A stretch of DNA of 64,000 nucleotides from an uncultured Bacilli bacterium (lineage in GTDB: Bacteria; Bacillota_I; Bacilli_A; RF39; UBA660): contig CAKPIT010000002.1 of the NCBI GenBank assembly GCA_934162445.1, positions 77,379 to 141,378 of the forward strand, read 5' to 3'. The stretch's first letter is position 1. Each line of letters starts with the position of its first letter. This document shows, in pieces, positions 12,023 to 58,287 of this stretch. Below the pieces are notes generated by a model that worked only from the letters and a program-made list of their open reading frames with translations, did not search any database and was not told the origin of the DNA. Made by a program: the position numbers and the translations under genes.

Positions 12023-12046
12023 GAAGCCTTCGGGCTTCTTTTTTTG
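12023..12046 (+). terminator. Rho-independent terminator
   Basis: GAAGCC-ttcg-GGCTTC followed by T8. Confidence 0.7.
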
Positions 12047-12120
12047 TCATTTTTTTGGGGTCTTTTAAACTTGATTAGATGTCTTCTTCTTTTTAAAATA
12101 GTAATAGATAGGAGGAAAAT

Positions 12121-14412
12121 ATGTTTTCAAGATTTAGTGAGGATGCCCAAAAAGCTTTAATATTAGCGAAAGCAGAGATGAATAGTTTGCATCATCCTTA
12201 TGTGGGTAGTGAGCATTTATTTTTGGCAATACTTTCGATGAAAACTTTGGATATAACAAAAAAGTTAGCACATTATAATATTACTTATGACATCTTTAAA
12301 AAGGAACTTATTAAAATAGTAGGAATGGGAAAGGAAGCTTCAAGTTGGTTTTTATATACACCACTATTAAAACGAGTAATTGAAACTGCTATTTTAAATA
12401 GTAAAGAAAAAGGCGAGGTAGAAGTTTCTATTAATGAGTTGTTGATGGCTATTTTGGAAGAAGGAGAAGGCGTAGCAATTAGACTTTTAATTGGCCTTAA
12501 TATTGATATTGATGAAATATATAATAATCTGTCTAAAGATTTTGAAGGGACAAAAAGGGTTGTTCACAAAAAACTTTTGGTGGATGATTATGGAGTTAAT
12601 TTAAATAAAAAAGTGTGTGATAATGATGTTGATCCGGTGATTGGAAGAGATGATGAGATTAATGCCTTAATTGAAGTTTTGTGTAGAAGGGGGAAGAATA
12701 ATCCATTATTAATTGGGGAAGCGGGGGTTGGAAAGACAGCCCTTGTAGAGGAGTTAGCTAGAAGAATTGTGGAAGGGAGAGTGCCTGTTTCTTTAAAAAA
12801 TAAAATTATTATTTCGTTACCAATGGCTAGTTTAGTAGCGGGGACTAAATATCGTGGTGAATTTGAAGAGAGAATTTCTAAGATTTTAAAGGAACTTGAA
12901 AATAACAAGGAAATAATTATTTTTATTGACGAAGTTCATACCATTGTAGGAGCGGGTGGTGCTGAAGGGGCGATTGATGCTTCTAATATTATTAAACCAG
13001 CACTGGCAAGGGGAAAATTACAGTTAATTGGGGCTACAACTGTTGGAGAATACCATACTTTTATTGAAAAAGATAAAGCCTTAAATAGAAGATTTCAATT
13101 AATTATGGTAGAAGAGCCTTCTTTAGCAAAAACAAAGGAAATTCTGAAGAAATTGAAGCCATTATATGAAGCGTATCATTTTGTTAGCATTGATGATAAT
13201 ATTATTGATTTAATAGTGGAACTTAGTAATACTTATATTTATGAATATTATCAACCAGATAAGGCAATTGATATTTTGGATGAAGTTTGTACAAAGGCAT
13301 CTCTTGTGGAAAATAAGACGGATATTAAGATAAGTTTTATTAATAGTGAGCTTAGTAAGGTTATAAATCTTAAGAAAAAAGCGATTATGAATCAGGATTT
13401 TGAACTTGCATCTGTTTTTAAAGAAAAAGAAAAGAAGTTATTGAGTGAAAGAAATTCTTTGGAACTTAAACTTTTAAAAAGAAAAAAGCCTAAGAAAATT
13501 ACGGCTGATATGGTGGGGAAGGTTATTTATTTAAAGACAAAGATTCCAGTTTATGAAGTTAATAAGAATTCTCTTAAAAGGATAAATCTTTTGGATAAAA
13601 AATTAAATAGTAAGGTTTTAGGACAAGAGAAAGTTATTAAAGATTTATGTAGTCGTGTTAAAAAAATTCAATTGGGGTTTAGAGAAAAACCAAAGGTTCA
13701 ATCTTTTCTTTTTTCGGGAATGACTGGAGTTGGGAAAACTTTGTTAGTTAAGGAATTTGCTAAAGAAATATATGATGATAGTAGTTTTATTAGACTTGAT
13801 ATGAGTGAATTTAGAGAAGATCATGCAGTTAGTAAAATTATAGGCTCACCGCCCGGATATGTTGGCTTTGATAATCATATTACAATTCTTGATACAATTA
13901 GAATGCATCCTCATGCTGTGGTGTTACTTGATGAGATTGAAAAGGCTAGTAGTGCGGTGTTAAAGTTATTTTTACAGGTGCTTGATGAAGGATTTTTAAC
14001 GGATTCGAGAGGTAGAAAAGTAAGATTTGATAATGTATTTTTATTTATGACTACTAATTTGGGATTTCATAGTGATGACCTTGGATTTTTAACAAGTAAA
14101 AAAGAAGAGGAATCGTTGGAAGATTTTTTAGGTGTTGAGTTTGTTAACCGTATTGATAAAGTTTATTATTTTGAAAAACTTGATAGAGATACAATAAGAA
14201 AAATTGTATTGATGAAGCTTAATATTTTGAAAAAAGCTTTTAAGAAGAAGGAACTTAATGTAAAGTTTTCCACATCTATTGTGGATAAAGTTATTGATAT
14301 GTCTATGTTTGATAAATTTGGAGCGAGACGTGTGGATAAAGTTATTGATGAAGTGGTAACACCTTTGATTGTTGATGCATGGTATTATGGAAAAAAGGAA
14401 GTGAAAGTATAA
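12121..14412 (+). CDS. clpC: ATP-dependent Clp protease ATP-binding subunit ClpC-like
   Basis: Clp N-domain repeat at the N-terminus. Two AAA modules (GEAGVGKTA and SGMTGVGKT Walker A; sensor motifs). No ctsR/mcsA/mcsB upstream. Confidence 0.8.
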   Translation: MFSRFSEDAQKALILAKAEMNSLHHPYVGSEHLFLAILSMKTLDITKKLAHYNITYDIFKKELIKIVGMGKEASSWFLYTPLLKRVIETAILNSKEKGEVEVSINELLMAILEEGEGVAIRLLIGLNIDIDEIYNNLSKDFEGTKRVVHKKLLVDDYGVNLNKKVCDNDVDPVIGRDDEINALIEVLCRRGKNNPLLIGEAGVGKTALVEELARRIVEGRVPVSLKNKIIISLPMASLVAGTKYRGEFEERISKILKELENNKEIIIFIDEVHTIVGAGGAEGAIDASNIIKPALARGKLQLIGATTVGEYHTFIEKDKALNRRFQLIMVEEPSLAKTKEILKKLKPLYEAYHFVSIDDNIIDLIVELSNTYIYEYYQPDKAIDILDEVCTKASLVENKTDIKISFINSELSKVINLKKKAIMNQDFELASVFKEKEKKLLSERNSLELKLLKRKKPKKITADMVGKVIYLKTKIPVYEVNKNSLKRINLLDKKLNSKVLGQEKVIKDLCSRVKKIQLGFREKPKVQSFLFSGMTGVGKTLLVKEFAKEIYDDSSFIRLDMSEFREDHAVSKIIGSPPGYVGFDNHITILDTIRMHPHAVVLLDEIEKASSAVLKLFLQVLDEGFLTDSRGRKVRFDNVFLFMTTNLGFHSDDLGFLTSKKEEESLEDFLGVEFVNRIDKVYYFEKLDRDTIRKIVLMKLNILKKAFKKKELNVKFSTSIVDKVIDMSMFDKFGARRVDKVIDEVVTPLIVDAWYYGKKEVKV

Positions 14413-26803: not shown

Positions 26804-27400
26804 TTATAATATTTTATCAATTAAACCATATTTTTTAGCTTCATGGGCACTTAGAAAGTAGTCACGATCGGTATCTTTTTCTATTTTTGTTAGACTTTGA
26901 TTGGTGTTTTTAGCTAGGATTTCATTTAATTTTTTCTTGGTTTTTAGAATGTGTTCGGCGGCAATTTTAATTTCGGTTGCTTGACCTTCGGCTCCACCTA
27001 GGGGTTGATGGATCATTACTTCACTGTTGGGAAGGCAATATCTTTTTCCTTTTTGTCCACTTGATAATAAAAAGGCACCCATGGAAGCGGCTAGACCTAT
27101 ACAGATAGTAGATACATCACTTTTTATAGTATTCATGGTGTCATATATGGCAAATCCGGCGGTTACGGAACCTCCTTCTGAATTTATATAAAGAGATATA
27201 TCATTATGGTTTATGGAATCTAAGTATAATAATTCGGCTATGATGATATTGGCTGTTTCGGTAGTGATTGCTCCACTTAACATAACAATACGATTTTTTA
27301 ATAGCTTGGAAAAAATATCATAGCTTCGTTCTCCATTTATTTCTTTATCAATAATCATTGGAATTAAATTCATTTTATCACCTACTTTATATATATCCAT
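26804..27400 (-). CDS. clpP: ATP-dependent Clp protease proteolytic subunit
   Basis: ClpP catalytic-triad context ([17 protein letters not shown]). 198 aa. Opposite orientation to its neighbours. Confidence 0.9.
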
Positions 27401-27482: not shown

Positions 27483-29153
27483 ATGAGGTTGGATAAAATG
27501 ATTGAAGAGGTTAAAGTTACAATTAATTCTAAAGAAGAGATGGTCGTACGTGGTACTACTTTGTTACAACTAAGTAAAAAATATCAAAAAGATTATCGCT
27601 TTCCAGTCGTTATTGCTAGTGTTAATAATGTATATAGGGAACTTAGTTATGTTATTAATGATCCGTGTGGTATTGTTTTTTATGATCTTAATTCTCGGGT
27701 TGGTAATAGGGCTTATATTGCGGGATTAACTTTTTTATTAGTAGTAGCTGTTAAAGAGAAGTTTGGACTTGATGCTTCTATTAAAGTTATGCATTCACTT
27801 GATAAGGGAATTTATATAGAAACATCTTTTCCGCTTACTGAGACTATTTTAAGATCTATTGCTAGAAAAATGGTTAGTTTAGTGGAACTTGATTTAGATA
27901 TTACAAAGGTAAGTGTGGAAAGAATATCGGCTATTCATTATTTTGAAAGTATTAATGATCTTGCAAAGGCTAAGGTTATGAAATATAACACTAACACATT
28001 TATAACGCTTTATCGATTGGGTAATTATTATAATTATTTTTATCATCAAATGCCTCCTAATACGGGATGTTTGAAGGATTTTAAATTAACTTATATAAAT
28101 GATAATGGTTTTGTTTTGCAATTTCCAACTATTTACTCTAATAATCAAATCAAATCTTATGTTCATCATGAAAATATGTTTAAAGTATTTAAAGAATGTC
28201 ATGATTGGACAAAATTGATGAAGATTGAGACGATTGCGGATTTAAATGAAGTAATTAGTACGGGTAATATTGCTGATTTAATTAGGATTGATGAAACGCT
28301 TCAAAGTAATAGACTTTTAAATTTGGCTCGGGAAATAGTTAAGAGTAAGAAGGATAAAAAAATTATTTTGTTAGCAGGTCCTTCTTCGAGTGGTAAGACG
28401 ACTACGACGACTAAGCTTTGTATGTACTTAAGAAGTTTTGGTCTTAATCCTAAAATGATTAGTATGGATAATTATTTTTTAGAACGGGATAAAACGCCTG
28501 TTAATAGCAAAGGTGAGAAGGATTTTGAATGTTTTGAAGCGGTTGATAATAAGCTTTTGACGAAACAGATTAAGGAATTACTTGATGGCAAAGAAGTAGT
28601 TATTCCTATTTATAATTTCAAGGAGGGTAAAAAAGAGTTTAAGGAAAAGCTTGAACTTAATAAGAATGATATTTTATTAATTGAGGGAATTCATGCTTTA
28701 AATCCATTGGTTTTAAAAGATATTCCTATGAAAAATAAATATAAGATTTATTTATCGGCTCTTACAGAGCTTAATATTGATAATCATAATAGATTTCCAA
28801 CGACAGATAATAGGTTATTAAGAAGAATTATTAGGGATAATAGGACAAGAGGCTATAATGTTGTTAATACTTTAAGTGCATGGCCTAATGTAAGACTTGG
28901 GGAGGAGAAGTATATTTTTCCTTATCAAGATGAAGCGGATGCGACAGTTAATACGGCTTTAATTTACGAGCTTGCAGTTCTTAAAACTTATGTTGAGCCA
29001 TTATTATTTTCTGTTAATGAAGATTCTGTGTATTATGAAGAGGCAAAGAGGCTTTTAAATGTTTTAAGACTTATTTTGCCTATTCCTAGTGAAAGTATTC
29101 CTGATGATTCTATTATTAGGGAATTTATTGGGGGTAGTTGTTTCCATGATTAA
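27483..29153 (+). CDS. Uridine kinase-family protein with an N-terminal ThrRS-like TGS domain
   Basis: N-terminal TGS-like beta-grasp (VTINSKEEMVVRGTTLLQL). P-loop LLAGPSSSGKTTTTTKL and a phosphoribulokinase/uridine-kinase core. Architecture as in the Firmicutes Udk-TGS fusion proteins. Confidence 0.7.
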   Translation: MRLDKMIEEVKVTINSKEEMVVRGTTLLQLSKKYQKDYRFPVVIASVNNVYRELSYVINDPCGIVFYDLNSRVGNRAYIAGLTFLLVVAVKEKFGLDASIKVMHSLDKGIYIETSFPLTETILRSIARKMVSLVELDLDITKVSVERISAIHYFESINDLAKAKVMKYNTNTFITLYRLGNYYNYFYHQMPPNTGCLKDFKLTYINDNGFVLQFPTIYSNNQIKSYVHHENMFKVFKECHDWTKLMKIETIADLNEVISTGNIADLIRIDETLQSNRLLNLAREIVKSKKDKKIILLAGPSSSGKTTTTTKLCMYLRSFGLNPKMISMDNYFLERDKTPVNSKGEKDFECFEAVDNKLLTKQIKELLDGKEVVIPIYNFKEGKKEFKEKLELNKNDILLIEGIHALNPLVLKDIPMKNKYKIYLSALTELNIDNHNRFPTTDNRLLRRIIRDNRTRGYNVVNTLSAWPNVRLGEEKYIFPYQDEADATVNTALIYELAVLKTYVEPLLFSVNEDSVYYEEAKRLLNVLRLILPIPSESIPDDSIIREFIGGSCFHD

Positions 29154-42337: not shown

Positions 42338-42721
42338 GGGGATGAAATGGTTTCGACAGGAATAATGGAACATAAACGGCAAGTCGAGTTGTTTACGTTA
42401 CAAACTAACAAATAATAACTGGAAACAGTATAAAAACAGCATTTGCTAATTTATTTGGTAAAAGAACTCCAGAATTAGCTTTAGCCTAGTTTAGGTAGAT
42501 GCACTGCTTATTCTTAATTTTCTACGTTAAGATGTAGTGGTTTATATTTAGTAGAATATAGTTATAGAATGTCTTGGCTATAACTGAATTATTAAGACTT
42601 GAATTGATTTATAGTTGATGATTACTAAGAATTAATTTGAAATTTGCTTAATCATCTAAACTTGTAGATGTTTATGAGGATTTATTTTTGGACAGGAGTT
42701 CAACTCTCCTCATCTCCACCA
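42338..42721 (+). ncRNA. ssrA: tmRNA (ssrA)
   Basis: 5' GGGGATGAAATGGTTTCGACAGG pairs with a 3' tRNA-like end. T-arm GGAGTTCAACTCTCC, then CATCTCCACCA. An internal tag reading frame ends ...PELALA-TAG at 42487-42489. Follows smpB. Confidence 0.8.
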
Positions 42722-43413: not shown

Positions 43414-43489
43414 GCCGACTTAGCTCAGTTGGTAGAGCAACTCATTCGTAATGAGTAGGTCGAAGGTTCAAGTCCTTTAGTCGGCACCA
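43414..43489 (+). tRNA. tRNA-Thr (anticodon CGU)
   Basis: Cloverleaf: acceptor GCCGACT/AGTCGGC, D-arm GCTC-AGTTGGTA-GAGC, anticodon stem ACTCA/TGAGT with loop TTCGTAA (anticodon CGT), T-arm GAAGG-TTCAAGT-CCTTT, and an encoded 3' ACCA. Confidence 0.85.
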
Positions 43490-43569: not shown

Positions 43570-44772
43570 ATGGAAAAAGAAAGAATGAGAGTTAGTATTT
43601 TACCTAATCAGTTCTTAGGAAGTGATGGGGTTTTTGATAAAGAGGGGGCTATTAAACTTTCTGCTAAAATAGCAGGGGTTTGTTATGATAAATTAGGATT
43701 TAATAATCTTGTTAACGAACCATTGGAAAAGACTAAAAGACGGGCTGATTTAACGCTTTCAATGGGACATTATAGTGTTTATGATCATATTTTTATAAGT
43801 TTTAATTTAGAAAATATTCCTAAGATGTTAGCAATGGTTTTAAACAATGAGAAACAGTATACGACTAGTGAGAAATCGGCTCGGTATACAAAAATTGTTA
43901 AAAATGAAGGATCTAATATTACTTCTTTGGAGGAGGAACTTTATAATAAGTGGTTAGATATTTTTAAGTTTAAAATTAAAGATACTTATGGTGATGTTTT
44001 AAATGATTCTAAAATTGTTAAGTTGGCTCAAGAGAATGCAAGATATTTGGTAACGGTGTTTATGCCAACTGAGATGATTTATACTACATCGTTAAGACAA
44101 GTTAATAATTTAGCAGCTTTTATGAAAGAATATATGGCTAATATTGATACAAATAGTAGTTTTGATAGGAAGCTTGCTGAATCTATGGGTGAATTGATAA
44201 CTTGTTTTGATAAACTTAATGTTCTTGATGAAAGACTTATGAAAAATGAAAAAAATAGATGTTTATCTATTTTTGGTCATGATTTAGCTAATAAGCAAGA
44301 ATATTTTGGTGATATTTATTCTACTATATATATGGGATCTTTTGCTTCTTATGCTCAAGCTCAAAGACATAGAACCCTTTCTTATCAATTTGAAATGCTT
44401 GATGATAAAAAGTATTTTGTGCCACCTATTTTAGATGATGATGAAAAGTTAGTGAATGAATGGAATTGTGATATTAGAAGTGTTCATGAGGTTATACCAC
44501 AAGGGGAGATGCTTTTAATAAGTGAAGTAGGAAAGTATGATGACTTTATCTTAAAAAGTAAAGAAAGATTATGTACTTCGGCACAACTTGAAATAATGTT
44601 ACAGACTAGGAATACATTATTAAAATATAAGGAAGCATTAGAAAATACTAATAATCCACTTGCTGAAGATATTTTAAAATATTCACATGGGGCAAGATGT
44701 ACATTTCCGGATTTTAAATGTCCTAATGATTGTAATTTTAAAGAAGGGAAGACTTTAGTAAGAAAAATTTAA
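43570..44772 (+). CDS. Divergent ThyX-fold (FAD-dependent thymidylate synthase family) protein, ~400 aa, lacking the RHR motif at its canonical position
   Basis: N-terminus aligns with ThyX (AKIAGVCYDK vs ARVSF/ACYQS; MGHYSVYDHIFISF vs GHFSVLEHASVSF). At the ThyX motif RHRx7S..RY this protein has NEKQYTTSEKSARY, so Ser and RY are kept but RHR is lost. An RHR occurs about 150 aa later (SYAQAQRHRTLSY). The protein is about 150 aa longer than typical ThyX. Confidence 0.45.
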   Translation: MEKERMRVSILPNQFLGSDGVFDKEGAIKLSAKIAGVCYDKLGFNNLVNEPLEKTKRRADLTLSMGHYSVYDHIFISFNLENIPKMLAMVLNNEKQYTTSEKSARYTKIVKNEGSNITSLEEELYNKWLDIFKFKIKDTYGDVLNDSKIVKLAQENARYLVTVFMPTEMIYTTSLRQVNNLAAFMKEYMANIDTNSSFDRKLAESMGELITCFDKLNVLDERLMKNEKNRCLSIFGHDLANKQEYFGDIYSTIYMGSFASYAQAQRHRTLSYQFEMLDDKKYFVPPILDDDEKLVNEWNCDIRSVHEVIPQGEMLLISEVGKYDDFILKSKERLCTSAQLEIMLQTRNTLLKYKEALENTNNPLAEDILKYSHGARCTFPDFKCPNDCNFKEGKTLVRKI

Positions 44773-47768: not shown

Positions 47769-47887
47769 ATTTTCCTCCTTTATTTATACATTTATATAAT
47801 GAACATATTTCTTATATTTATTCATGAATATTAGAAAGTGATTATTAATATAATAAATTAGAAATGAAAAAGAGGTGTTTTCTATTT

Positions 47888-48193
47888 ATGAAAAAATTTG
47901 GTTTGTTAGGTTTTTTTCTAGTTTGTTTATTGATTACTGGTTGTGGAAAAGATAGTGAAAGTACAATTTTAAAAAAGTTAGATAAGAAAATTAATAATAA
48001 TAATTCTTATTTAATGACTGGAACACTCGAGGTTTTAAATAATGATGATATATATAATTACGAAGTGGAAACTGCATATAAAAAGGATAATTATTATAAA
48101 GTAACGCTTAAAAATACAGCGAATGATCATGAACAAATAATTTTAAAAAATGATGATGGTGTTTATGTATTAACACACAAGGGTTTAAAATAA
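47888..48193 (+). pseudogene. 5' fragment of an interrupted lipoprotein gene (signal peptide plus N-terminal domain)
   Basis: Lipoprotein signal MKKFGLLGFFLVCLLITGC with an AAGAGG RBS. The ORF ends 5 codons after the peptide VYVLT. The C-terminal fragment at 51112 restarts with LLVYVLT. Confidence 0.55.
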
Positions 48194-48291
48194 AAAAATT
48201 TAAATAGATATAATAAAAAACAGGTAGTATTGTTAATATACTACTGCTTTTTATATTTTTAGAATATTTTGTTATGCTATATTCAAAAGCA

Positions 48292-48477
48292 CTATTTACC
48301 ACCTATTTTTTTAACTTCTGCTGAAGCATTTTTTCCGTGCCATCCCATTTTTTGAGTGTTTGGGTCATACCATGTGTGTTCGCCATCCCAAGTTTTAGAA
48401 TTTTGTTGAGCTGTACCACTACTTAAATTGTGTTTTTGCCAACTATAACCATATTCATCTTTTGTTTTGTTTGACAT
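48292..48477 (-). CDS. Small Trp/Gly/Lys-rich hypothetical protein (61 aa), element cargo
   Basis: ORF with an upstream RBS-like AAGGAGA, divergent from the 48617 gene. No family recognised. Confidence 0.3.
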   Translation of the reverse strand: MSNKTKDEYGYSWQKHNLSSGTAQQNSKTWDGEHTWYDPNTQKMGWHGKNASAEVKKIGGK

Positions 48478-48566
48478 ATATATTCTCCTTTCTTATTTTG
48501 GTTATTCTAATGACGAATTGCTTCTTTGTCAACTTTTTTCTACATATTACTATATAAAATAGTCCG

Positions 48567-48594
48567 TTGACATATTAATGATTTGCTTTATAAT
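48567..48594 (+). promoter_or_regulatory. Consensus sigma-A promoter driving the 48617 cargo gene
   Basis: TTGACA (48567-72), a 16 nt spacer, TATAAT (48589-94), then RBS AGAGAGGTG and the ATG at 48617. Confidence 0.6.
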
Positions 48595-48616
48595 ATTCAT
48601 AAGAGAGGTGAATAGT

Positions 48617-49264
48617 ATGCAAATTGTGTATAATCCTAATGATATAGATAAATTGTTATTTACGGAGTTAGTAATTGCTAAAAATCAAAATGCTTCTGAT
48701 AAAAATATATTTGAAGATGAGATATATCGAAGATTTAGATTTTGTGGATTTGATGATAGATTTACAAAAGAAATGATTGAATATGAAGAAACTATTTTAG
48801 AGGTAACAAAAAAAGAGTATGATAAATATTTTTATCAGATAAAATATTGGACTAGTCTTGGTGATAATGAAAAATTATTTAAAGATAATATTGAGTCATA
48901 TGCTTTGTATATAGATGGTGAAATGTCTGATAAGGCTTTTACTACTAGTGAACTTATAAGTATATATGATGAAGGTGATTTTATTATTAGATATGGTAGT
49001 GATATTTATAGTAGTCATTTAGAAGAAATTGATATGGTTACTTCTAATAGTAAATATAATTTATTAGATGAGTTTAGAAATAGAATTGGTTATATTCTTT
49101 TTAGGGAATTTAAACAAGAATATGATTCTAATATTGATATTTGTGCTGCTAGGCTTTATAAAAATGAGGCTCATATATTGTTCATAAATAAGTATAAATA
49201 TGCTGATAATGATGATAGAAAGTGGAAGCCATATACGAGGGAATTTTTTAATTATTATGATTAA
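48617..49264 (+). CDS. Hypothetical acidic, aromatic-rich cytoplasmic protein (215 aa), element cargo
   Basis: Clean ORF with a strong promoter and RBS. No TM helices and no recognisable catalytic motifs. Confidence 0.4.
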   Translation: MQIVYNPNDIDKLLFTELVIAKNQNASDKNIFEDEIYRRFRFCGFDDRFTKEMIEYEETILEVTKKEYDKYFYQIKYWTSLGDNEKLFKDNIESYALYIDGEMSDKAFTTSELISIYDEGDFIIRYGSDIYSSHLEEIDMVTSNSKYNLLDEFRNRIGYILFREFKQEYDSNIDICAARLYKNEAHILFINKYKYADNDDRKWKPYTREFFNYYD

Positions 49265-49377
49265 ATGTTTGTAGATTACATTTTTATGTGTCTACTTTTT
49301 TATTGTTTTAATAATATGACAAAAATAGTAAGTAATAATTAAGTATTTAGTTCATATGTTTTAATGGGTGACTTTTT

Positions 49378-49482
49378 ATGAGAGTGACATGTTATTTTGA
49401 TGAGAATGGTAAATCATTTCAAGAAATTATAGAGCAATTTCTAGTTCTTTATTATAATGAAACTTTAATAGAAAATGGTTAA
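49378..49482 (+). CDS. 34-aa ORF immediately upstream of the recombinase (possible directionality factor/leader)
   Basis: ATG..TAA open frame ending 18 nt before the recombinase start. Speculative. Confidence 0.2.
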   Translation: MRVTCYFDENGKSFQEIIEQFLVLYYNETLIENG

Positions 49483-49500
49483 AAAATTTAGGAGGTAATT

Positions 49501-51090
49501 ATGGTAAGTAGTGAAATGTATAAAGTAGGTATTTATTTAAGATTATCTCATGAAGATAAATTAAAAGGTGAGAGTGGAAGTATTTCTAATCAAAGAGACA
49601 TCATTCATAAATATATAAAAGAAAATAATTTATTATATGTAAGTGAATATGTTGATGATGGTGTCAGTGGGACGCAATTTGATAGGGTTGGATGGAATAA
49701 ATTAATTGAGGATATTGAATCCGGATGTATTAATATGGTAATTACTAAGGACTTATCAAGATTTGGAAGGAATGAGGGACAACAGTTAAGGTATTTAGAT
49801 TATTTCTACGAAAAAGGAATAAGATATGTGGCGTTACTTGATAATGTTGATACATTTGATGAATATAATACATCTAATGAAATGATTCCAATACAGTGTT
49901 TTTTTAATGAGAAGCATGTAAGAGATACTTCTAAAAAGATGAAGGCGAGTGTATATAATAAAAGAAGTCAAGGTAATTTTTTGGGTAAGACTGCTCCTTA
50001 TGGTTATAAGAAAGATCCTAATAATAAATATAAGTTGATTGTTGATGAGGTGGCTTCAAAAGTGGTTAAAAGAATATTTGATTTATTTGTTAAGGGAAAA
50101 GGAATTTGTGAAATATCTAGAATTTTAACATATGAGAAAGTACCTATTCCTACTGAGTATAAGGGCCTTAAATCTGGTCATATGTCAATAGGGTATGGTA
50201 TTTGGAATAATAGAACTATTAGTGATATGTTGACTCTTCCTACTTATGTTGGTGATTTAACGCAAGGGAGGTCAAAAAAACCTAGTTATAAATCAAAGAA
50301 AAGAGTAAGGGTTAAACCTGAAGATTGGATAATATGTGAAAATAAATGTCCAGCTATAATTGATAGAGATACATTTAATCTGGTTCAAGACATATATAAT
50401 AGGAATAAAAACCAAGGTAAACATACACAAGATATATTACTTAAGGGTTTTGTGTATTGTAAAGAATGTGGTCATACAATAGGTTTTAGACTTCAAAAAG
50501 TTAATACTAAAAAGAAAGGTGAAGTTACTAGATGTTATGGTAATTGTAATTACTGGGCTAAACATAAAAAATATGATTTATGTACTCCTCACAATATTAA
50601 GTACTATGAATTAGAAGATTTAGTATTGAGTGAGATAAAGAAAATGTGTAAAAATTATTTGAAAATTAGGGATTTAGAGAATGTATTAGCGAATAGTGAC
50701 AAAACTAAAAGAATAGTAAATGAGTTAGAAATAAATTTAAAAAAATTAGTAGCAGAAGTTGAATTTAGTAATAAGAAAAAAGAAGACTTATATAGTGATA
50801 AATTAGATGGCATTATTGATTTAGAAATGTATAAAAGAATGACTAATAGAATAGCTGAAGAAACAATCACTAAACAAAACGAGATAGCAGAAATAAAAAC
50901 TAGAATATATAATATAAATAATAATATTACTAATAATAATAAAAAATATGAAAGTGTTATAAAAGAATATTTATCTATGAAAAAACCTAGTGTACAATTA
51001 TTATCTAGTATCATAGATAAAATAGTTATAGATGAAAATAAAAATGTAGAGATATATTATAAATTTAAGCCATTTGAAAATGGTTATTAA
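49501..51090 (+). CDS. Large serine recombinase (resolvase/invertase N-terminal domain, recombinase domain, zinc ribbon)
   Basis: The N-terminal resolvase domain has a catalytic Ser context (GIYLRLSHED, SISNQRD, DLSRFGRN). The middle region is a recombinase domain. C-terminal zinc ribbon (CKECGH...CYGNC) and coiled-coil. 529 aa. Confidence 0.85.
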   Translation: MVSSEMYKVGIYLRLSHEDKLKGESGSISNQRDIIHKYIKENNLLYVSEYVDDGVSGTQFDRVGWNKLIEDIESGCINMVITKDLSRFGRNEGQQLRYLDYFYEKGIRYVALLDNVDTFDEYNTSNEMIPIQCFFNEKHVRDTSKKMKASVYNKRSQGNFLGKTAPYGYKKDPNNKYKLIVDEVASKVVKRIFDLFVKGKGICEISRILTYEKVPIPTEYKGLKSGHMSIGYGIWNNRTISDMLTLPTYVGDLTQGRSKKPSYKSKKRVRVKPEDWIICENKCPAIIDRDTFNLVQDIYNRNKNQGKHTQDILLKGFVYCKECGHTIGFRLQKVNTKKKGEVTRCYGNCNYWAKHKKYDLCTPHNIKYYELEDLVLSEIKKMCKNYLKIRDLENVLANSDKTKRIVNELEINLKKLVAEVEFSNKKKEDLYSDKLDGIIDLEMYKRMTNRIAEETITKQNEIAEIKTRIYNINNNITNNNKKYESVIKEYLSMKKPSVQLLSSIIDKIVIDENKNVEIYYKFKPFENGY

Positions 51091-51111
51091 AAATAGAAAA
51101 AAATTAAACCT

Positions 51112-51846
51112 TTGTTAGTATATGTTCTCACTCCTAGTTTAAATAAAAGTTTTAAATTTCAAAGTGATTGGCCGTATAATAATTCACAGATCTATTTATT
51201 GGAATCATTGATTAATGATATTAAAAATGATAATAAAAGTGAATTTAAAACGAAAAGTGATGGCTATATTTTTACTAGTAAAGTAAATTATCCTAATAAT
51301 CGTAATTTGGTAAGACAAAAGGTTAGTCTTGATAAGAAGGTTAATTTAAAGAAAGTAATAGTTTTGGATAGTGATAGTGTTCCTAATATGACTTTAAATA
51401 TTAAAAAGATTGATTATAATCCACATTTTAGTAAAAATTATTTTAATCTTGATGATATTATGGGTAGTAGTTCTAGTAAAGATACTAAGACGGAGAAAAC
51501 AGGAATTATTAATGATGTTATTTATCCTTTGGTTCTTCCTGAGGGGACTAAGTTAACTAATGAAGAAACAGTAAAAAAAGATGATGGTAATCGGGTTATT
51601 CTTACTTTTTCTGGGGAAAAGCCATTTACTTTAGTGGAAGAAGTAGATATGGTTAATGATCAGTTTACGGTAATACCAACGATGGGGGAACCGTTTATGA
51701 TAATGGATAGTCTTGGGGTATTGGGTGATAATTCAGTTAACTTTAGTTCAAATGGTATTAGTTATTACTTGGTTAGTGATGTTATGAATCAAAGTGAACT
51801 TTTGGAAATTGCTAATTCGATAAATGTTTTACCAACAATGAAATAA
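51112..51846 (+). pseudogene. 3' fragment of the interrupted lipoprotein gene (LolA-like/DUF4367-like?)
   Basis: No signal peptide. Frame opens 3 codons after the in-frame TAG at 51094. Begins LLVYVLTPSLNK. The combined N- and C-fragment length is about 340 aa. Confidence 0.5.
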
Positions 51847-51902
51847 GCACGAAAGTGTTTATTTTTTTTAGTTTTTATGGTACTATTTAAGTGGTGATAT
51901 AT

Positions 51903-52388
51903 ATGAAGAAAACAACTTATGGAAATGAAATGCAAGGACAAGTTAAAAAAGTTATAATTATTCTTGTAGTTATAGTTATTTTATTAGGAGGAACTTATTT
52001 ATTAACAACTAAAATATTAAAGAAAAGTAATAGTACTACTTCTAATAAGGTTACTAAAAATAGTATTCAATATGATGAAATTTTAGCAGGGGAATCATTT
52101 AATCAAAATAATGATGAATATTATGTTATATATTTTGACAAAAGTAATAACTCTTCTTCTTTTAGCTCATTAGTTAGTTCTTATCAGTTAAATAATACTA
52201 AGACAAGAATGTATAGTGTTGATCTTAGTAGTGGCTTTAATAAAGATTATGTGACTGATGGTGAAGCTGTTGTTCACGATATTAATGACTTTAAAGTTAA
52301 AGATGGAACATTAATTAAAGTTAAAAATGGGGAAGTAGAAGAGGTAATAACTGATACAACTGAAATTACAAATATTTTGAATAGTTAG
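51903..52388 (+). CDS. Membrane-anchored hypothetical protein
   Basis: N-terminal TM helix (VIIILVVIVILLGGTYLL). About 160 aa. No family recognised. Confidence 0.4.
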   Translation: MKKTTYGNEMQGQVKKVIIILVVIVILLGGTYLLTTKILKKSNSTTSNKVTKNSIQYDEILAGESFNQNNDEYYVIYFDKSNNSSSFSSLVSSYQLNNTKTRMYSVDLSSGFNKDYVTDGEAVVHDINDFKVKDGTLIKVKNGEVEEVITDTTEITNILNS

Positions 52389-52475
52389 TGTAAACAAATA
52401 GTGTTATTTCACTATTTTTCTTTTAGACTTCTTTTTTTTATGTTAAAATTAAAGAAGATTAGGGTGGTAGATTGT

Positions 52476-53708
52476 ATGAATAGTGAAGATGAAAATATAA
52501 GTAATGATAATGTACGAGAAGTTATTGTGGAAAGAAAAGTAGGCTTTAGTTTCTCAGAAGTTATTATTATTATGATAATTGCTATTATGTTTGGGTTTCT
52601 TTTAGGAAATATTATTAATTTTACAGTAGTTGATAAGAAAAGTAATGATAAAGACTTAAAGGAACTGGTTAGTACTTATAATAATATTATTGATAATTAC
52701 TATAAAGATGTTAATAAGGAAGAGTTAATAGATGCGGGAATTCAAGGAATGATTAATTATTTAGATGATCCGTATGCTACTTATTTTAGTGATGATGCTT
52801 CTAAAAAATTTAATGATGAGCTTAGTGGTACTTATGAAGGAATTGGTATTCAAATAAAACTTGATGGTGATAAAGTGGTAATAACTGATGTTTTTGATGA
52901 TAGTCCTGCGAAGGATGTGGGCCTTAAAAAGAATGATATTATTTTAAAAATAGATGATAATTCTGTTAATGGTAAAACGTTAAATGAAGTTGTTTCTATG
53001 ATATCTATTAAAAATAGTAAAAGCAAGGTTAAAGTTACAGTGGAGCGTGATGGAGATCAAGTCGATTTTTCTCTTAGTAAAGGAAAGATTGAAACTCCTA
53101 ATATTGTTAGTAAGATGTACGAGAATAATGGAAGAAAGATTGGATATTTAAGGATTGAAGTTTTTTCTTTAAATACTTATAAACAATTTAATAAGGCTTT
53201 AAAAGAACTTGAAAAGAATTCGATTGATGGTCTTGTTATTGATGTTCGGGATAATCCGGGAGGCTATTTATCACAAGTTAAAGATGTGTTGAGTTTGTTT
53301 TTAAGTAAGAAGCAGGTGTTATATCAATTACAAACTAAAGATGTTAAGGAGAAGGTTTATGGTAGTAGATCTACTATTAAAAGAAAGTATCCGGTTAGTG
53401 TAATTATTAATGAAGAGAGTGCTTCAGCATCAGAGATTTTGGCTAGTGCGTTTAAAGAGAGTTATGGTTCACATATTATTGGAGTTAATTCTTTTGGTAA
53501 GGGGACAGTGCAATCAGCTTCTGATCTTAGCAGTGGTGATACAATTAAATATACAGTTCAAAAATGGTTAACGCCTAAAGGTAATTGGATTAATGAGAAA
53601 GGTGTTGTTCCTACTGATCGGTGTGAAAACGTCTTAAAAGAGGGCGAAGTTTTGACTGATGATAATGATGTTATGTTGAAAAAAGCTATAGAAACTGTTA
53701 GTTCATAG
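52476..53708 (+). CDS. ctpA: Carboxy-terminal processing peptidase (S41) with a PDZ domain
   Basis: N-terminal TM anchor. PDZ domain (GIGIQIKLDGDKVVITDVFDDSPAKDVGLKKNDIILKID). S41 core with the catalytic Ser in ESASASEI and a Lys further downstream. The ATG at 52476 has an AGGGTGG RBS. Confidence 0.75.
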   Translation: MNSEDENISNDNVREVIVERKVGFSFSEVIIIMIIAIMFGFLLGNIINFTVVDKKSNDKDLKELVSTYNNIIDNYYKDVNKEELIDAGIQGMINYLDDPYATYFSDDASKKFNDELSGTYEGIGIQIKLDGDKVVITDVFDDSPAKDVGLKKNDIILKIDDNSVNGKTLNEVVSMISIKNSKSKVKVTVERDGDQVDFSLSKGKIETPNIVSKMYENNGRKIGYLRIEVFSLNTYKQFNKALKELEKNSIDGLVIDVRDNPGGYLSQVKDVLSLFLSKKQVLYQLQTKDVKEKVYGSRSTIKRKYPVSVIINEESASASEILASAFKESYGSHIIGVNSFGKGTVQSASDLSSGDTIKYTVQKWLTPKGNWINEKGVVPTDRCENVLKEGEVLTDDNDVMLKKAIETVSS

Positions 53709-53728
53709 CTATTTTTCCATAAAATAAA

Positions 53729-53755
53729 TTAGCACTCTATATTGACAAGTGCTAA
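53729..53755 (+). promoter_or_regulatory. CIRCE element (HrcA operator) overlapping the clpB -35
   Basis: TTAGCACTC-N9-AAGTGCTAA against the consensus TTAGCACTC-N9-GAGTGCTAA (one mismatch). Confidence 0.75.
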
Positions 53756-53770
53756 TTTTTGTAATATAAT
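53742..53770 (+). promoter_or_regulatory. Sigma-A promoter of clpB
   Basis: TTGACA (53742-47), 17 nt spacer, TATAAT (53765-70). The RBS AAAGGAGGAAGG follows. Confidence 0.65.
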
Positions 53771-53797
53771 AGAAATGATTTGAAAGGAGGAAGGTGT

Positions 53798-55894
53798 ATG
53801 TATCAAAATAATCAAAATGAAAGTGAAAATGTTTTGGAAAAGTATGGTCGTAATATTAATGAGGCTGTTAAAAATGGAAAAATCGATCCAGTGATTGGTC
53901 GTGATGAAGAAATTCGTGGTATTACAAGAGTTCTTTCAAGAAAAACTAAAAATAATCCAGTGTTAATTGGTGAACCGGGAGTTGGTAAAACAGCAATTGT
54001 GGAAGGACTTGCTCTTAGAATTGAACGTGGTGATGTTCCTAGTAGTTTAAAAAATAAAACGATTTGGGAACTTGATATGGCTAGTTTAGTAGCAGGGGCT
54101 AAGTATCGTGGTGAGTTTGAGGAACGTTTAAAAAATGTTTTAAATGAAATTAAAAAAAGTGAAGGTTCTATCATTATGTTTATTGATGAGATTCATACTA
54201 TAGTTGGTAGTGGTAATATGGAAGGGGCTATGGATACTTCTAATATTTTAAAACCAATGTTAGCGCGTGGTGAGATTCATGTGATTGGGGCTACTACGTT
54301 AAATGAATATCGTAAATATATCGAAAAGGATGGAGCTTTGGAAAGACGTTTTCAAAAAATTAAAGTTAGTGAACCATCTGTTTTAGATACTATTACTATT
54401 TTAAGGGGTCTTAAAGAGAGATTTGAGATCCATCATGGGGTTACTATTCATGATAAGGCTTTGGTAGCTGCTGCTACTTTATCCAATCGTTATATTACTG
54501 ATCGTTTTTTACCAGATAAAGCGATTGATTTGATTGATGAAGCGTGTGCTACTATTAGAGTTCAAATGGATTCTGTACCTAATGCTCTTGATAGTTTAAC
54601 ACGAAAGATTATGCGTCTTGAGATTGAAAGACAAGCTATAAAAAAAGAAAAGGATCAATTGTCTTTGAAAAGAAAAGAAGAAATTGATAAAGAGCTTGTT
54701 AATTTGAAAGGTGAAGAGAAAAAATATAAAGATGCTTGGGATGAAGAGAAGAGTCTTAATGATAAGATGCAAAGTAAGAAGAAAGAAATTGAAAAATGTC
54801 GTTTTGAACTTGAACAAGCAGAGAATAGATATGATTTAGAGACAGCGGCAAGACTTCGTCATGGAACGCTTCCAAGACTTGAAAAAGAACTTGAAGATTT
54901 AAAAAGTAAAGATAAGATGAAACTGTTAAGTGATAATGTAACAGAAGATGATATTGCAGCCGTTATTTCTAAGTGGACTAATATTCCGTTAAGTAAGTTA
55001 GTTAGTAGTGAAAAAGATAAGTTATTGAATTTGGAAAACAGTATGAAAAGTAGGGTTATGGGTCAAGATGAAGCACTTCATTTAGTTAGTGAGGCTATTA
55101 TTAAAAGTCGTAGTGGAATAAAAGATCCTAATCGACCAATTGGATCATTTATGTTTTTAGGTCCAACAGGAGTTGGTAAAACAGAGGTTGCTCGTACACT
55201 TGCTTATGAACTTTTTGATGATGAAAAACATATGGTTAGAATTGATATGAGTGAATATATGGAAAAATTTAGTGTTTCTCGTCTTATTGGTTCGCCACCC
55301 GGATATGTTGGTTATGAAGAAGGAGGACAATTAACGGAGGCTGTTCGTCGTAATCCTTATAGTATTGTTTTATTTGATGAGATTGAAAAAGCTCATCCTG
55401 AGGTTTTGAATTTATTATTACAAATTCTTGATGATGGACGAATAACGGATTCTAATGGTAGAACAGTTGATTTTAAAAATACAATTATTATTATGACTTC
55501 TAATCTTGGTAGTCAAGATATACTTGAAGGTAAAACGGAACTTGTTGCATCTTTATTACAAGAAACATTTAGACCTGAATTTATTAATCGTATTGATGAA
55601 ATTATATTCTTTAAGCCTCTTACTAAAAAGGTAATTTATCAAATTCTTGATAAAATTGTTAGGGATATTGAAGAACGTCTTAAGGTTAATGACATTCATA
55701 TTGAATTAACATCTAAGGCTAAGGATTTCTTAATTGATTCTAGTTATGATGTTACTTATGGAGCGAGACCGTTAAAACGGGAAGTTAGTAAAACGATTGA
55801 GAGTTTACTTGCTCATGCTCTTATTAAAGGTGATATTAAGTATGGTGATACAATTACTTTTGATTGTCATGATGATAAAATTGTTATTAAATAA
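53798..55894 (+). CDS. clpB: Chaperone ClpB lacking the N-terminal Clp_N domain (Mollicutes-type short ClpB)
   Basis: Starts just before AAA-1 (GEPGVGKTA). Long middle coiled-coil domain. AAA-2 (GPTGVGKTE). About 698 aa. No Clp_N repeat in any upstream frame; only about 70 nt separate it from ctpA. Confidence 0.8.
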
Positions 55895-55929
55895 AAGAAA
55901 TATGATTTTAATTAGTCATATTTCTTTTT

Positions 55930-58287
55930 TTATAGTACTTCAATTTCATCATTAATATCATGCCATGTCCAGTTTTTGATTTCGTCTAAATCTTCACCAT
56001 ATTCTTTGATATATTCAGAATGTTTGATTAACTGGTCTTTACACCATTCATATAGAGGTGTTCTTTTATCTTCTAAGAAGTCTAAATATTTTAAGGCATC
56101 CATGACAAGGTGATATCTATCTATTTTGTTTTGAACTCGCATATCAAATGGAGTGGTAATAGTTCCTTCTTCAATATAACCATGAACGTGAATATTTTTA
56201 TTTTCGCGTTTGTAGGTTAATTGATGAATTAAAGATGGATAGCCATGGAAGGCGAATATAATAGGTTTATCTTTAGTGAAGAGCATATTATAATCTTGAT
56301 TACTTAATCCATGTGGATGTTCATAGTTTGATTGTAATTTCATTAAGTCAACAACATTGACACATCTTATTTTTATTTGTTTAAAATAGTTATGTAAAAT
56401 GGAAATGGCTGCAAGAGTTTCAACAGTTGGAGTATCTCCACAACAAGCCATAATTATATCTGGTCCTTCTTTTTGATCGTTGCTGGCCCAGTTGAAAATA
56501 CCAATTCCTTTACTACAATGATTAACAGCTTCTTCCATTGATAACCATTGCATACTTGGATGTTTAGATGCTACTACAACATTTATGTAGTTTTTACTTT
56601 TGATACAATGATCAATTGTGGATAATAAACAGTTAGCATCTGGGGGTAAATATATTCTTGCAATGTCAGCTTTTTTGGTGGCAATATGGTTTAAAAAACC
56701 GGGATCTTGATGAGTATATCCATTATGATCTTGTTGCCATATATGGGATGTTAATAAATAATTTAGGGATGATATCCTACGGCGCCAATCAAGTTGTTGA
56801 CATACTTTTAACCATTTTGCATGTTGACTAGTCATAGAGTCCACAATTCTAACGAAAGCTTCATAAGTATCAAATATTCCGTGTCTGCCAGTTAAAATGT
56901 ATCCTTCTAATAGTCCTTCACAGATATGTTCTGATAAAAAAGAATCAATTACTTGTCCCGTTGGAGCGAGATATTCATCAGTATCTAGAATTTGGCCGGT
57001 GAATTGTCTATTGGTATAATCAAAGATAGCATTTAAACGGTTTGATAGAGCTTCATCAGGACCAAAGATACGGAAGTTATGATTTTTCTTCATAACGTCT
57101 TCAAGATAGTATCCTAAGACTTTGGTATCTTGAGCTTTAGTAGTACCATGTTTTGTTACTTCAACTTTGTAGTTACGAAAATCTGGTAGATGCAATTCTT
57201 TTAAAAGAAGGCCACCATTAGCATATGGATTAGCACCCATACGTCTAATGCCTGTAGGGGCAAGAGCTTTTAAATCTTCTTTTAGGGAACCATCACTATT
57301 AAATATATCTTCTGGATGGTAACTTTTTAACCACTGTTCTAATAGATCAACATGTTCCATATGATCTTGATCAACAGGAAGTGGTACTTGATGGGAACGA
57401 AAACTTCCTTCGATAGTTTTACCATCATAGGTTTTAGGACCGGTCCATCCTTTTGGTGTTTTTAAAATTATCATTGGCCAAAGGGGTCTTTGATTAGTGT
57501 TTGCTTCTTTTATTTTCTTAATTTTTATAATAGTACTATCAAGGGCTTTAGCCATTTCTTCATGTAATAGGGATGGGTCTTTTCCTTCTATATAAATGGG
57601 ATCATAGCCATAACCTTTAAATAAATTCAATAATTCTTCTTTTGAGATTCTAGCTAAAATAGTGGGATTGGCAATTTTATAACCATTTAAATTTAAAATG
57701 GGTAGGACAACACCATCGGTTTTAGGATTTAGTAATTTGTTACAATGCCATGAGGTTGCTAAGGGACCAGTTTCTGCTTCACCATCACCAACGACGACAG
57801 TGGCAATTAAATCTTTATTATCAAGAACAGCTCCAAAACCATGAACAAGGCTGTAACCTAGTTCGCCACCTTCGTTAATTGAACCCGGAGTTTCAGGGGC
57901 AACATGAGATGATATTCCTTTGGGAAAACTGAATTGTTTAAATAATTTTTTTAGGCCTTCTTCATCTTGTGAGATATTAGGATATATTTCACTATAGGTT
58001 CCTTCTAGGTAAACATTTGATACAATAGCATTACCTCCATGACCCGGTCCTGAGATATAAATCATATTTAAATCATATTTTTTGATTATTCTATTTAAAT
58101 GTGCATAAATAAAATTTTGGGCAGGAACAGTTCCCCAATGACCAACTACTTTCTTTTTTAAATCATCTTTTTTTAATGGCCTTTTTAAAAGGGGATTATC
58201 TTTTAGATAAAGTTGTCCTACTGATAAGTAATTGGCAGCATTAAAATAGCGATTTATTCTTTCTTTTTCTTCGTTAGATAGTATCAT
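55930..58287 (-). CDS. xfp: Xylulose-5-phosphate/fructose-6-phosphate phosphoketolase
   Basis: 785 aa with an XFP N-terminal signature (..GHWGT.PG.NF..AH.NR) and ThDP-binding motifs (GPGHGG, EGGELGY). Confidence 0.9.

Follow-up and report, generated by a model that had tools for sequence, protein, structure and literature searches.

A consensus promoter overlapped by a CIRCE operator precedes a ClpB without N-domain in an uncultured low-GC Firmicute

The window analysed here is the whole 64-kb stretch of DNA (64,000 nucleotides) from a low-GC Firmicute (29.5% GC) that belongs to an uncultured gut lineage known from metagenome assemblies alone. The clpB locus of the window consists of a peptidase gene, an operator, a promoter, the chaperone gene itself and a hairpin, arranged as follows.

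52401-53708, + strand: ctp, S41 C-terminal processing peptidase (CtpB-like), a complete gene and the upstream neighbour of clpB
53729-53755, + strand: CIRCE operator, with left arm 53729-53737 (TTAGCACTC), spacer 53738-53746 (TATATTGAC) and right arm 53747-53755 (AAGTGCTAA)
53742-53770, + strand: sigma-70-type promoter, with -35 box TTGACA (53742-53747), a 17-nt spacer and -10 box TATAAT (53765-53770)
53786-53790, + strand: Shine-Dalgarno sequence GGAGG, read from the sequence, 7 nt 5' of the ATG at 53798
53798-55894, + strand: clpB, 698 aa, with AAA-1, M-domain, AAA-2 and D2-small, without Clp_N
55893-55931, between the convergent clpB and phosphoketolase genes: AT-rich hairpin with a T-run, 15-bp stem, -14.5 kcal/mol

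The operator matches 17 of the 18 bases of the consensus arms (TTAGCACTC / GAGTGCTAA), and its arms are separated by exactly 9 nt, the canonical length. The sole mismatch is a G to A change at base 1 of the right arm. No other CIRCE match with at most three mismatches occurs in the 64-kb window, and shuffled sequence gives a chance expectation of 0.02. The promoter agrees with the consensus at 12 of 12 positions, and no second such site occurs in 53400-56100. Operator and promoter share bases: the -35 box is made up of the final five bases of the CIRCE spacer together with the right-arm base next to them, and the G to A departure of that arm is the same change that converts TTGACG to TTGACA. 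The near-perfect CIRCE overlapping the -35 box of a consensus promoter, described in an earlier note on this DNA, is thereby borne out. The distance from the operator to the clpB ATG is 43 nt, and judging from the promoter, transcription of clpB would start near 53777. At the other end of the gene, the hairpin at 55893-55931 is likely a bidirectional terminator common to clpB and the phosphoketolase gene. It was overlooked by our terminator scan, which is GC-biased. The same scan recognised no terminator behind the upstream ctp gene, so some read-through transcription into clpB is possible.

The clpB upstream regions of the window and four other loci were aligned, namely L081, L084, L006 and L056, whose ClpB proteins are 89, 87, 65 and 60% identical to that of the window, respectively. 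All five share the left arm, TTGAC, TGCTAA and TATAAT without any change, the first spacer bases of the CIRCE are variable, and the DNA upstream of the operator cannot be aligned. The right-arm departure from the consensus is conserved within the genus. The operator thus lies in a chaperone-gene promoter and is kept in orthologous promoters. In the window ctp and clpB are immediate neighbours, but in relatives the junction between them (53708-53798 by window coordinates) is a hot spot of insertion. At L081:2754-6001 it is occupied by an integrase, an IS91-type Y2 transposase and an ORF of 197 aa, and at L084/L085:305-3001 by an HTH_3 repressor with unknown ORFs. Despite these insertions, the CIRCE-promoter unit stands directly ahead of clpB in L081, L084 and L085. 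Kept amid divergent flanks and insertions, the unit is a clear phylogenetic footprint, as left by a working operator and a promoter that serves clpB autonomously.

The palindrome could instead be a relic or the site of another regulator, with clpB being constitutive or controlled elsewhere, for example by CtsR through a divergent box. Such a reading could draw on the genes of the window, where hrcA is absent, and on Spiroplasma melliferum, in which the CIRCE copies reportedly undergo degeneration (PMC5138195). The same study, however, counts sites with up to two mutations as functional, and the operator described here deviates at one base of 18. Moreover, the left arm and TGCTAA are kept over a range of 60-100% ClpB identity while spacer and flanks vary, and within 200 nt of clpB the best CtsR-like repeat has six mismatches. 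We regard a relic or a foreign regulatory site as improbable, and an operator that is still in use as the far better account of the palindrome.

The product of the gene is a ClpB that begins at the first AAA module. The NCBIfam ClpB model TIGR03346 is by far its strongest NCBIfam match (1107.5 bits) and is colinear with the 698-aa protein over model positions 147-852 of 853. Pfam detects AAA, AAA_lid_9, AAA_2 and ClpB_D2-small, and gives no match to Clp_N (PF02861) in this protein. When aligned with PDB chains, residues 8-690 correspond to residues 148-839 of Thermus thermophilus ClpB and residues 8-696 to residues 156-854 of E. coli ClpB, each in one stretch, so that both references enter the alignment at query residue 8. 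The colinear match to T. thermophilus ClpB includes a full-length M-domain coiled coil. Both Walker A/B pairs (GEPGVGKT at 58 and IMFIDE at 126; GPTGVGKT at 455 and IVLFDE at 523) and the pore-loop tyrosines (KYRG at 102, GYVG at 502) are intact, and a ClpP-docking [ILV]G[FL] tripeptide is found nowhere in the 698 residues. By extrapolation from the alignment, Met1 would lie approximately at the internal start of E. coli ClpB, Val149, from which the natural short isoform is made (PMC6389857, PMC6168691).

The short form is shared by close relatives. The 120 best database relatives, at 87-100% identity, all have lengths of 698-718 aa and are devoid of PF02861, and the same length and start recur in over 100 sequence clusters that stem from independent assemblies. 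On these sequences, a short ClpB is the norm for the host lineage. In a search against 1.84 billion representatives, the representative of the protein's own 50% cluster is full-length, because ClpB is so conserved; proteins without the N-domain account for about 9 of the best 150 representatives and are scattered in the ClpB tree.

Two further readings concern the identity and integrity of this protein. A length of about 700 aa is also that of ClpL, and the title of a paper by Suokko et al., cited in PMC7053576, connects ClpL with HrcA, so the gene might encode an Hsp100 of the ClpL type, or of the ClpC/ClpE type, instead of ClpB. The comparison with PDB chains speaks strongly against both. 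ClpB chains in the PDB match from end to end with E = 1e-260 to 1e-247, whereas the 701-aa chain 6lsy, which we take to be Streptococcus pneumoniae ClpL, reaches E = 1e-155 without a single continuous stretch, and the best stretch of the ClpC match covers the C-terminal half only. The rank and colinearity of the ClpB model and the missing ClpP-docking tripeptide point in the same direction. With these chains matching far worse or in part, we reject both identities and consider either of them very unlikely.

The other reading, that the short ClpB is an assembly truncation, a frameshifted or otherwise decaying gene, or one half of a protein whose N-domain is encoded separately, finds its one point of support in a score below the equivalog cut-off (1107.5 against 1232.1 bits), but is already essentially refuted: the shortfall matches, and is due to, the 146 missing model positions at the start, every catalytic motif is intact, and independent assemblies agree on length and start. 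A frameshifted upstream N-domain, which the earlier note had named as a finding that would contradict it, is excluded as well. A stop codon lies directly upstream of 53780, ahead of the clpB start, and the stop of the complete peptidase gene (53708) is separated from the clpB ATG by 89 bp, which leaves no room for an N-domain exon. An N-domain encoded elsewhere in the window is likewise out, since tblastn with nine ClpB N-domains returned a single match, the N-domain of clpC at 12130-12324. We therefore describe the gene as an intact clpB whose product is naturally devoid of the N-domain, in agreement with the earlier assignment of a 698-aa ClpB lacking Clp_N.

In classical Bacilli, clpB, clpC and clpP are under CtsR (class III) control. 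The window contains the other two of these genes.

12121-14412, + strand: clpC-like Clp ATPase, 763 aa, carrying Clp_N and a ClpP-docking loop with the tripeptide LGF
26804-27373, - strand: clpP, with ATG at 27373 after an AGGTGA ribosome-binding site; the mechanical ORF reaches 27400

The 763-aa ATPase reaches none of the NCBIfam Clp cut-offs but is colinear with the ClpC proteins of Staphylococcus aureus and Bacillus subtilis, and seems to be a divergent ClpC that stands without a McsB/CtsR partner system at its locus. The genes 5' of clpC are lysS and then a DcuC-type transporter with its own terminator; ctsR, mcsA and mcsB are absent ahead of clpC, as the earlier note had stated for the ctsR-mcsAB-clpC operon. 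The gene order at clpC recurs in a relative whose ClpC is 77% identical, and this relative gives no Pfam matches to CtsR, McsA or McsB. The stretch TTTTTTTGTCAnTTTTTTGGGG, located between the terminator of the transporter gene and the promoter of clpC, is kept in the two sequences compared (window 12040-12060; L091:9920-9940).

The CtsR operator was searched as tandem heptads, (A/G)GTCAAA-NAN-(A/G)GTCAAA. No box with at most one mismatch exists anywhere in the 64-kb window. Upstream of clpC and clpP, the closest CtsR-like matches have 4-5 mismatches and the closest CIRCE matches 8-9, which dismisses sites of either kind at these two genes and upholds the earlier statement that CtsR boxes are missing there. 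As a positive control, the scan detected a perfect box (GGTCAAAGAAAGTCAAA) 87 nt upstream of Staphylococcus caprae clpB, and it also found boxes with two mismatches in two Lactobacillales metagenome-assembled genomes (MAGs). The earlier note had further proposed that heat-shock regulation as such was rewired to HrcA. The CIRCE at clpB agrees with this proposal, but clpC and clpP are devoid of CIRCE, so the rewiring holds for clpB only.

Several neighbouring features of the window were recorded along the way. Divergent from clpP, a 556-aa protein (27483-29153) matches uridine kinase/PRK in its C-terminal half only, and its N-terminal ~280 aa gave no family match. Immediately behind smpB comes a tmRNA (42338-42721), whose tag reads GNSIKTAFANLFGKRTPELALA, and then a tRNA-Thr(CGT) at 43414-43489; a 400-aa protein at 43570-44772 has only a weak ThyX match. 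Between cdaR and ctp, a large serine recombinase (49501-51090; Resolvase, Recombinase, Zn_ribbon_recom) sits among ORFs without family assignment (47864-52388), and this region could represent an integrated element. By megablast, the recombinase region had no match in the phage collection.

As a whole, the operator, its promoter and the coding sequence very probably constitute a class I (HrcA/CIRCE) heat-shock promoter that drives a naturally N-domain-less ClpB disaggregase. We modelled the mechanism on the paradigms of B. subtilis, Chlamydia and Mycoplasma (PMC7053576, PMC7737663), and by analogy with them we infer HrcA binding, GroE titration and heat induction at clpB. None of hrcA, groESL and dnaK is encoded in the 64-kb window. 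In the absence of stress, GroEL/ES would keep an HrcA dimer active, and this dimer would bind the 9-N9-9 inverted repeat and, because the -35 hexamer lies inside the CIRCE, would block RNA polymerase at the clpB promoter. Proteotoxic stress would titrate GroE, leave HrcA inactive and allow the consensus promoter to fire strongly, in line with the GroE-titration model of HrcA (PMC7053576). Since the CIRCE lies upstream of the start predicted near 53777, it would act as a DNA operator only and not as an element of the mRNA. Control of clpB by HrcA is described in Mycoplasma pneumoniae, S. melliferum and Mycoplasma gallisepticum (PMC7737663, PMC5138195). The short ClpB, which has no ClpP-docking loop, would then thread aggregated proteins together with DnaK/DnaJ/GrpE. 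Short ClpB isoforms are active (PMC6168691, PMC6389857), and forms without the N-domain are weaker on large aggregates (PMC6168691).

The distribution of the operator was assessed in 80 clpB loci from named genomes among the matches listed, with a CIRCE scored at up to two mismatches within 250 nt of the start. A CIRCE precedes clpB in 17 of the 80. Fifteen of these 17 genes encode full-length proteins of 854-900 aa; by their titles, 14 come from Clostridia lineages (Lachnospiraceae, Oscillospiraceae, Christensenellaceae and others) and one from a Bacilli MAG. At the sampled sites, the CIRCE frequently encloses the -35 box. Short ClpB proteins are encoded in this sample only by L006 and L056, and a short ClpB is thus rarer than a CIRCE at clpB. 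The earlier note had regarded a short ClpB under HrcA control as the Mollicutes arrangement. That arrangement is indeed documented in Mollicutes, but the operator half of it also precedes the 15 full-length genes, and with CIRCE at the full-length clpB of Clostridia, a CIRCE at clpB is no Mollicutes signature. Being widespread in Clostridia and in Mollicutes-related Bacilli, it is unfit as a taxonomic marker.

The L056 locus has a layout of its own. Of the two CIRCEs ahead of a 703-aa ClpB without N-domain at L056:2896-5091, one covers the -35 box and the other follows the -10 box, a design like the dual arrangement reported for Spiroplasma clpB. The genome is labelled as a Staphylococcus epidermidis MAG, and the locus is probably misbinned, because its GC content is 39.5%.

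The nearest named ClpB among the matches listed is that of L006, a MAG labelled Tenericutes with 24% GC, whose 701-aa protein is 65% identical to that of the window and is preceded by a perfect CIRCE. In a neighbour-joining tree of the ClpB core, built from this single gene with 100 bootstraps, the proteins of the window, L081, L084 and L006 were grouped in 99 of 100 replicates. Together with L056 and L017 they formed a group in 100 of 100, and 85 of 100 replicates placed this clade within the ClpBs of Bacilli. A CIRCE at clpB is common to all four lineages of the 100/100 clade, and the ClpB of L017 retains the N-domain. The window holds no rRNA. As single-gene evidence, the tree would fit the affinity of the host to relatives of the Mollicutes suggested in the earlier note, which had called it Erysipelotrichia-like. 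The sporulation genes on which the earlier note had relied are present, with yabG, yabP, yabQ and spoVG passing their NCBIfam cut-offs.

Taken together, the host may tentatively be placed as a spore-former on the Bacilli branch toward the Mollicutes, one that would have lost CtsR/McsAB and the ClpB N-domain and retained HrcA as its sole dedicated heat-shock repressor, although we consider this placement doubtful. If true, both the short ClpB and a minimal stress circuit of the Mollicutes type would predate the loss of cell wall and sporulation, and the full-length, CIRCE-preceded ClpB of L017 would represent the ancestral state. The evolutionary pointer is a modest one, namely that loss of the ClpB N-domain and a missing ctsR operon can coexist with endospore genes. 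For the gene itself, the analysis permits a confident annotation in an abundant, uncharacterised gut lineage, with clpB as a predicted member of the HrcA regulon that has a putative sigma-A promoter and a putative terminator. The current understanding of heat-shock regulation is left unchanged by these findings.

Mycoplasma ClpB has a length of about 715 aa. Like the window, the Mollicutes M. pneumoniae (MPN531), M. gallisepticum and S. melliferum have a CIRCE at the clpB promoter (PMC7737663, PMC5138195), and Mycoplasma is the exception to the two-isoform rule of ClpB in having the short form only (PMC6168691). The Tenericutes-labelled L006 shares with the window both the operator with its embedded -35 box and the short ClpB. 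In contrast to Mollicutes, the host described here has yabG, yabP, yabQ, a ClpC-like ATPase and ClpP, and endospore genes in combination with a ClpC-like ATPase and ClpP indicate that its genome is not a reduced, wall-less one. It also differs from Spiroplasma in having one CIRCE at clpB where two copies are reported.

The 14 full-length clpB genes of Clostridia carry the same operator as the window, with TTGAC(A) often embedded in the spacer or the right arm and the site located 30-210 nt 5' of the start. Their products, however, keep the N-domain (859-900 aa) and belong to another branch of the ClpB tree. The window ClpB begins at a position equivalent to that of E. coli ClpB-beta (ClpB80) and of Mycobacterium tuberculosis ClpB-deltaN, both of which are initiated at an internal GUG (codon 149). 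In those two species the short and the full-length protein are made from one gene, whereas the clpB of the window yields the short form alone. The CtsR (class III) system of Bacilli has the same target genes clpB, clpC and clpP, but its heptad repeats and a ctsR-mcsA-mcsB cluster are absent from the window; the clpC-like gene nevertheless lies in a conserved, Bacillus-like order (lysS ... clpC ... cysS, mrnC, rlmB, sigH). A CIRCE on clpB and a ClpB without N-domain are both of known kinds, and the two have already been described together in Mollicutes.
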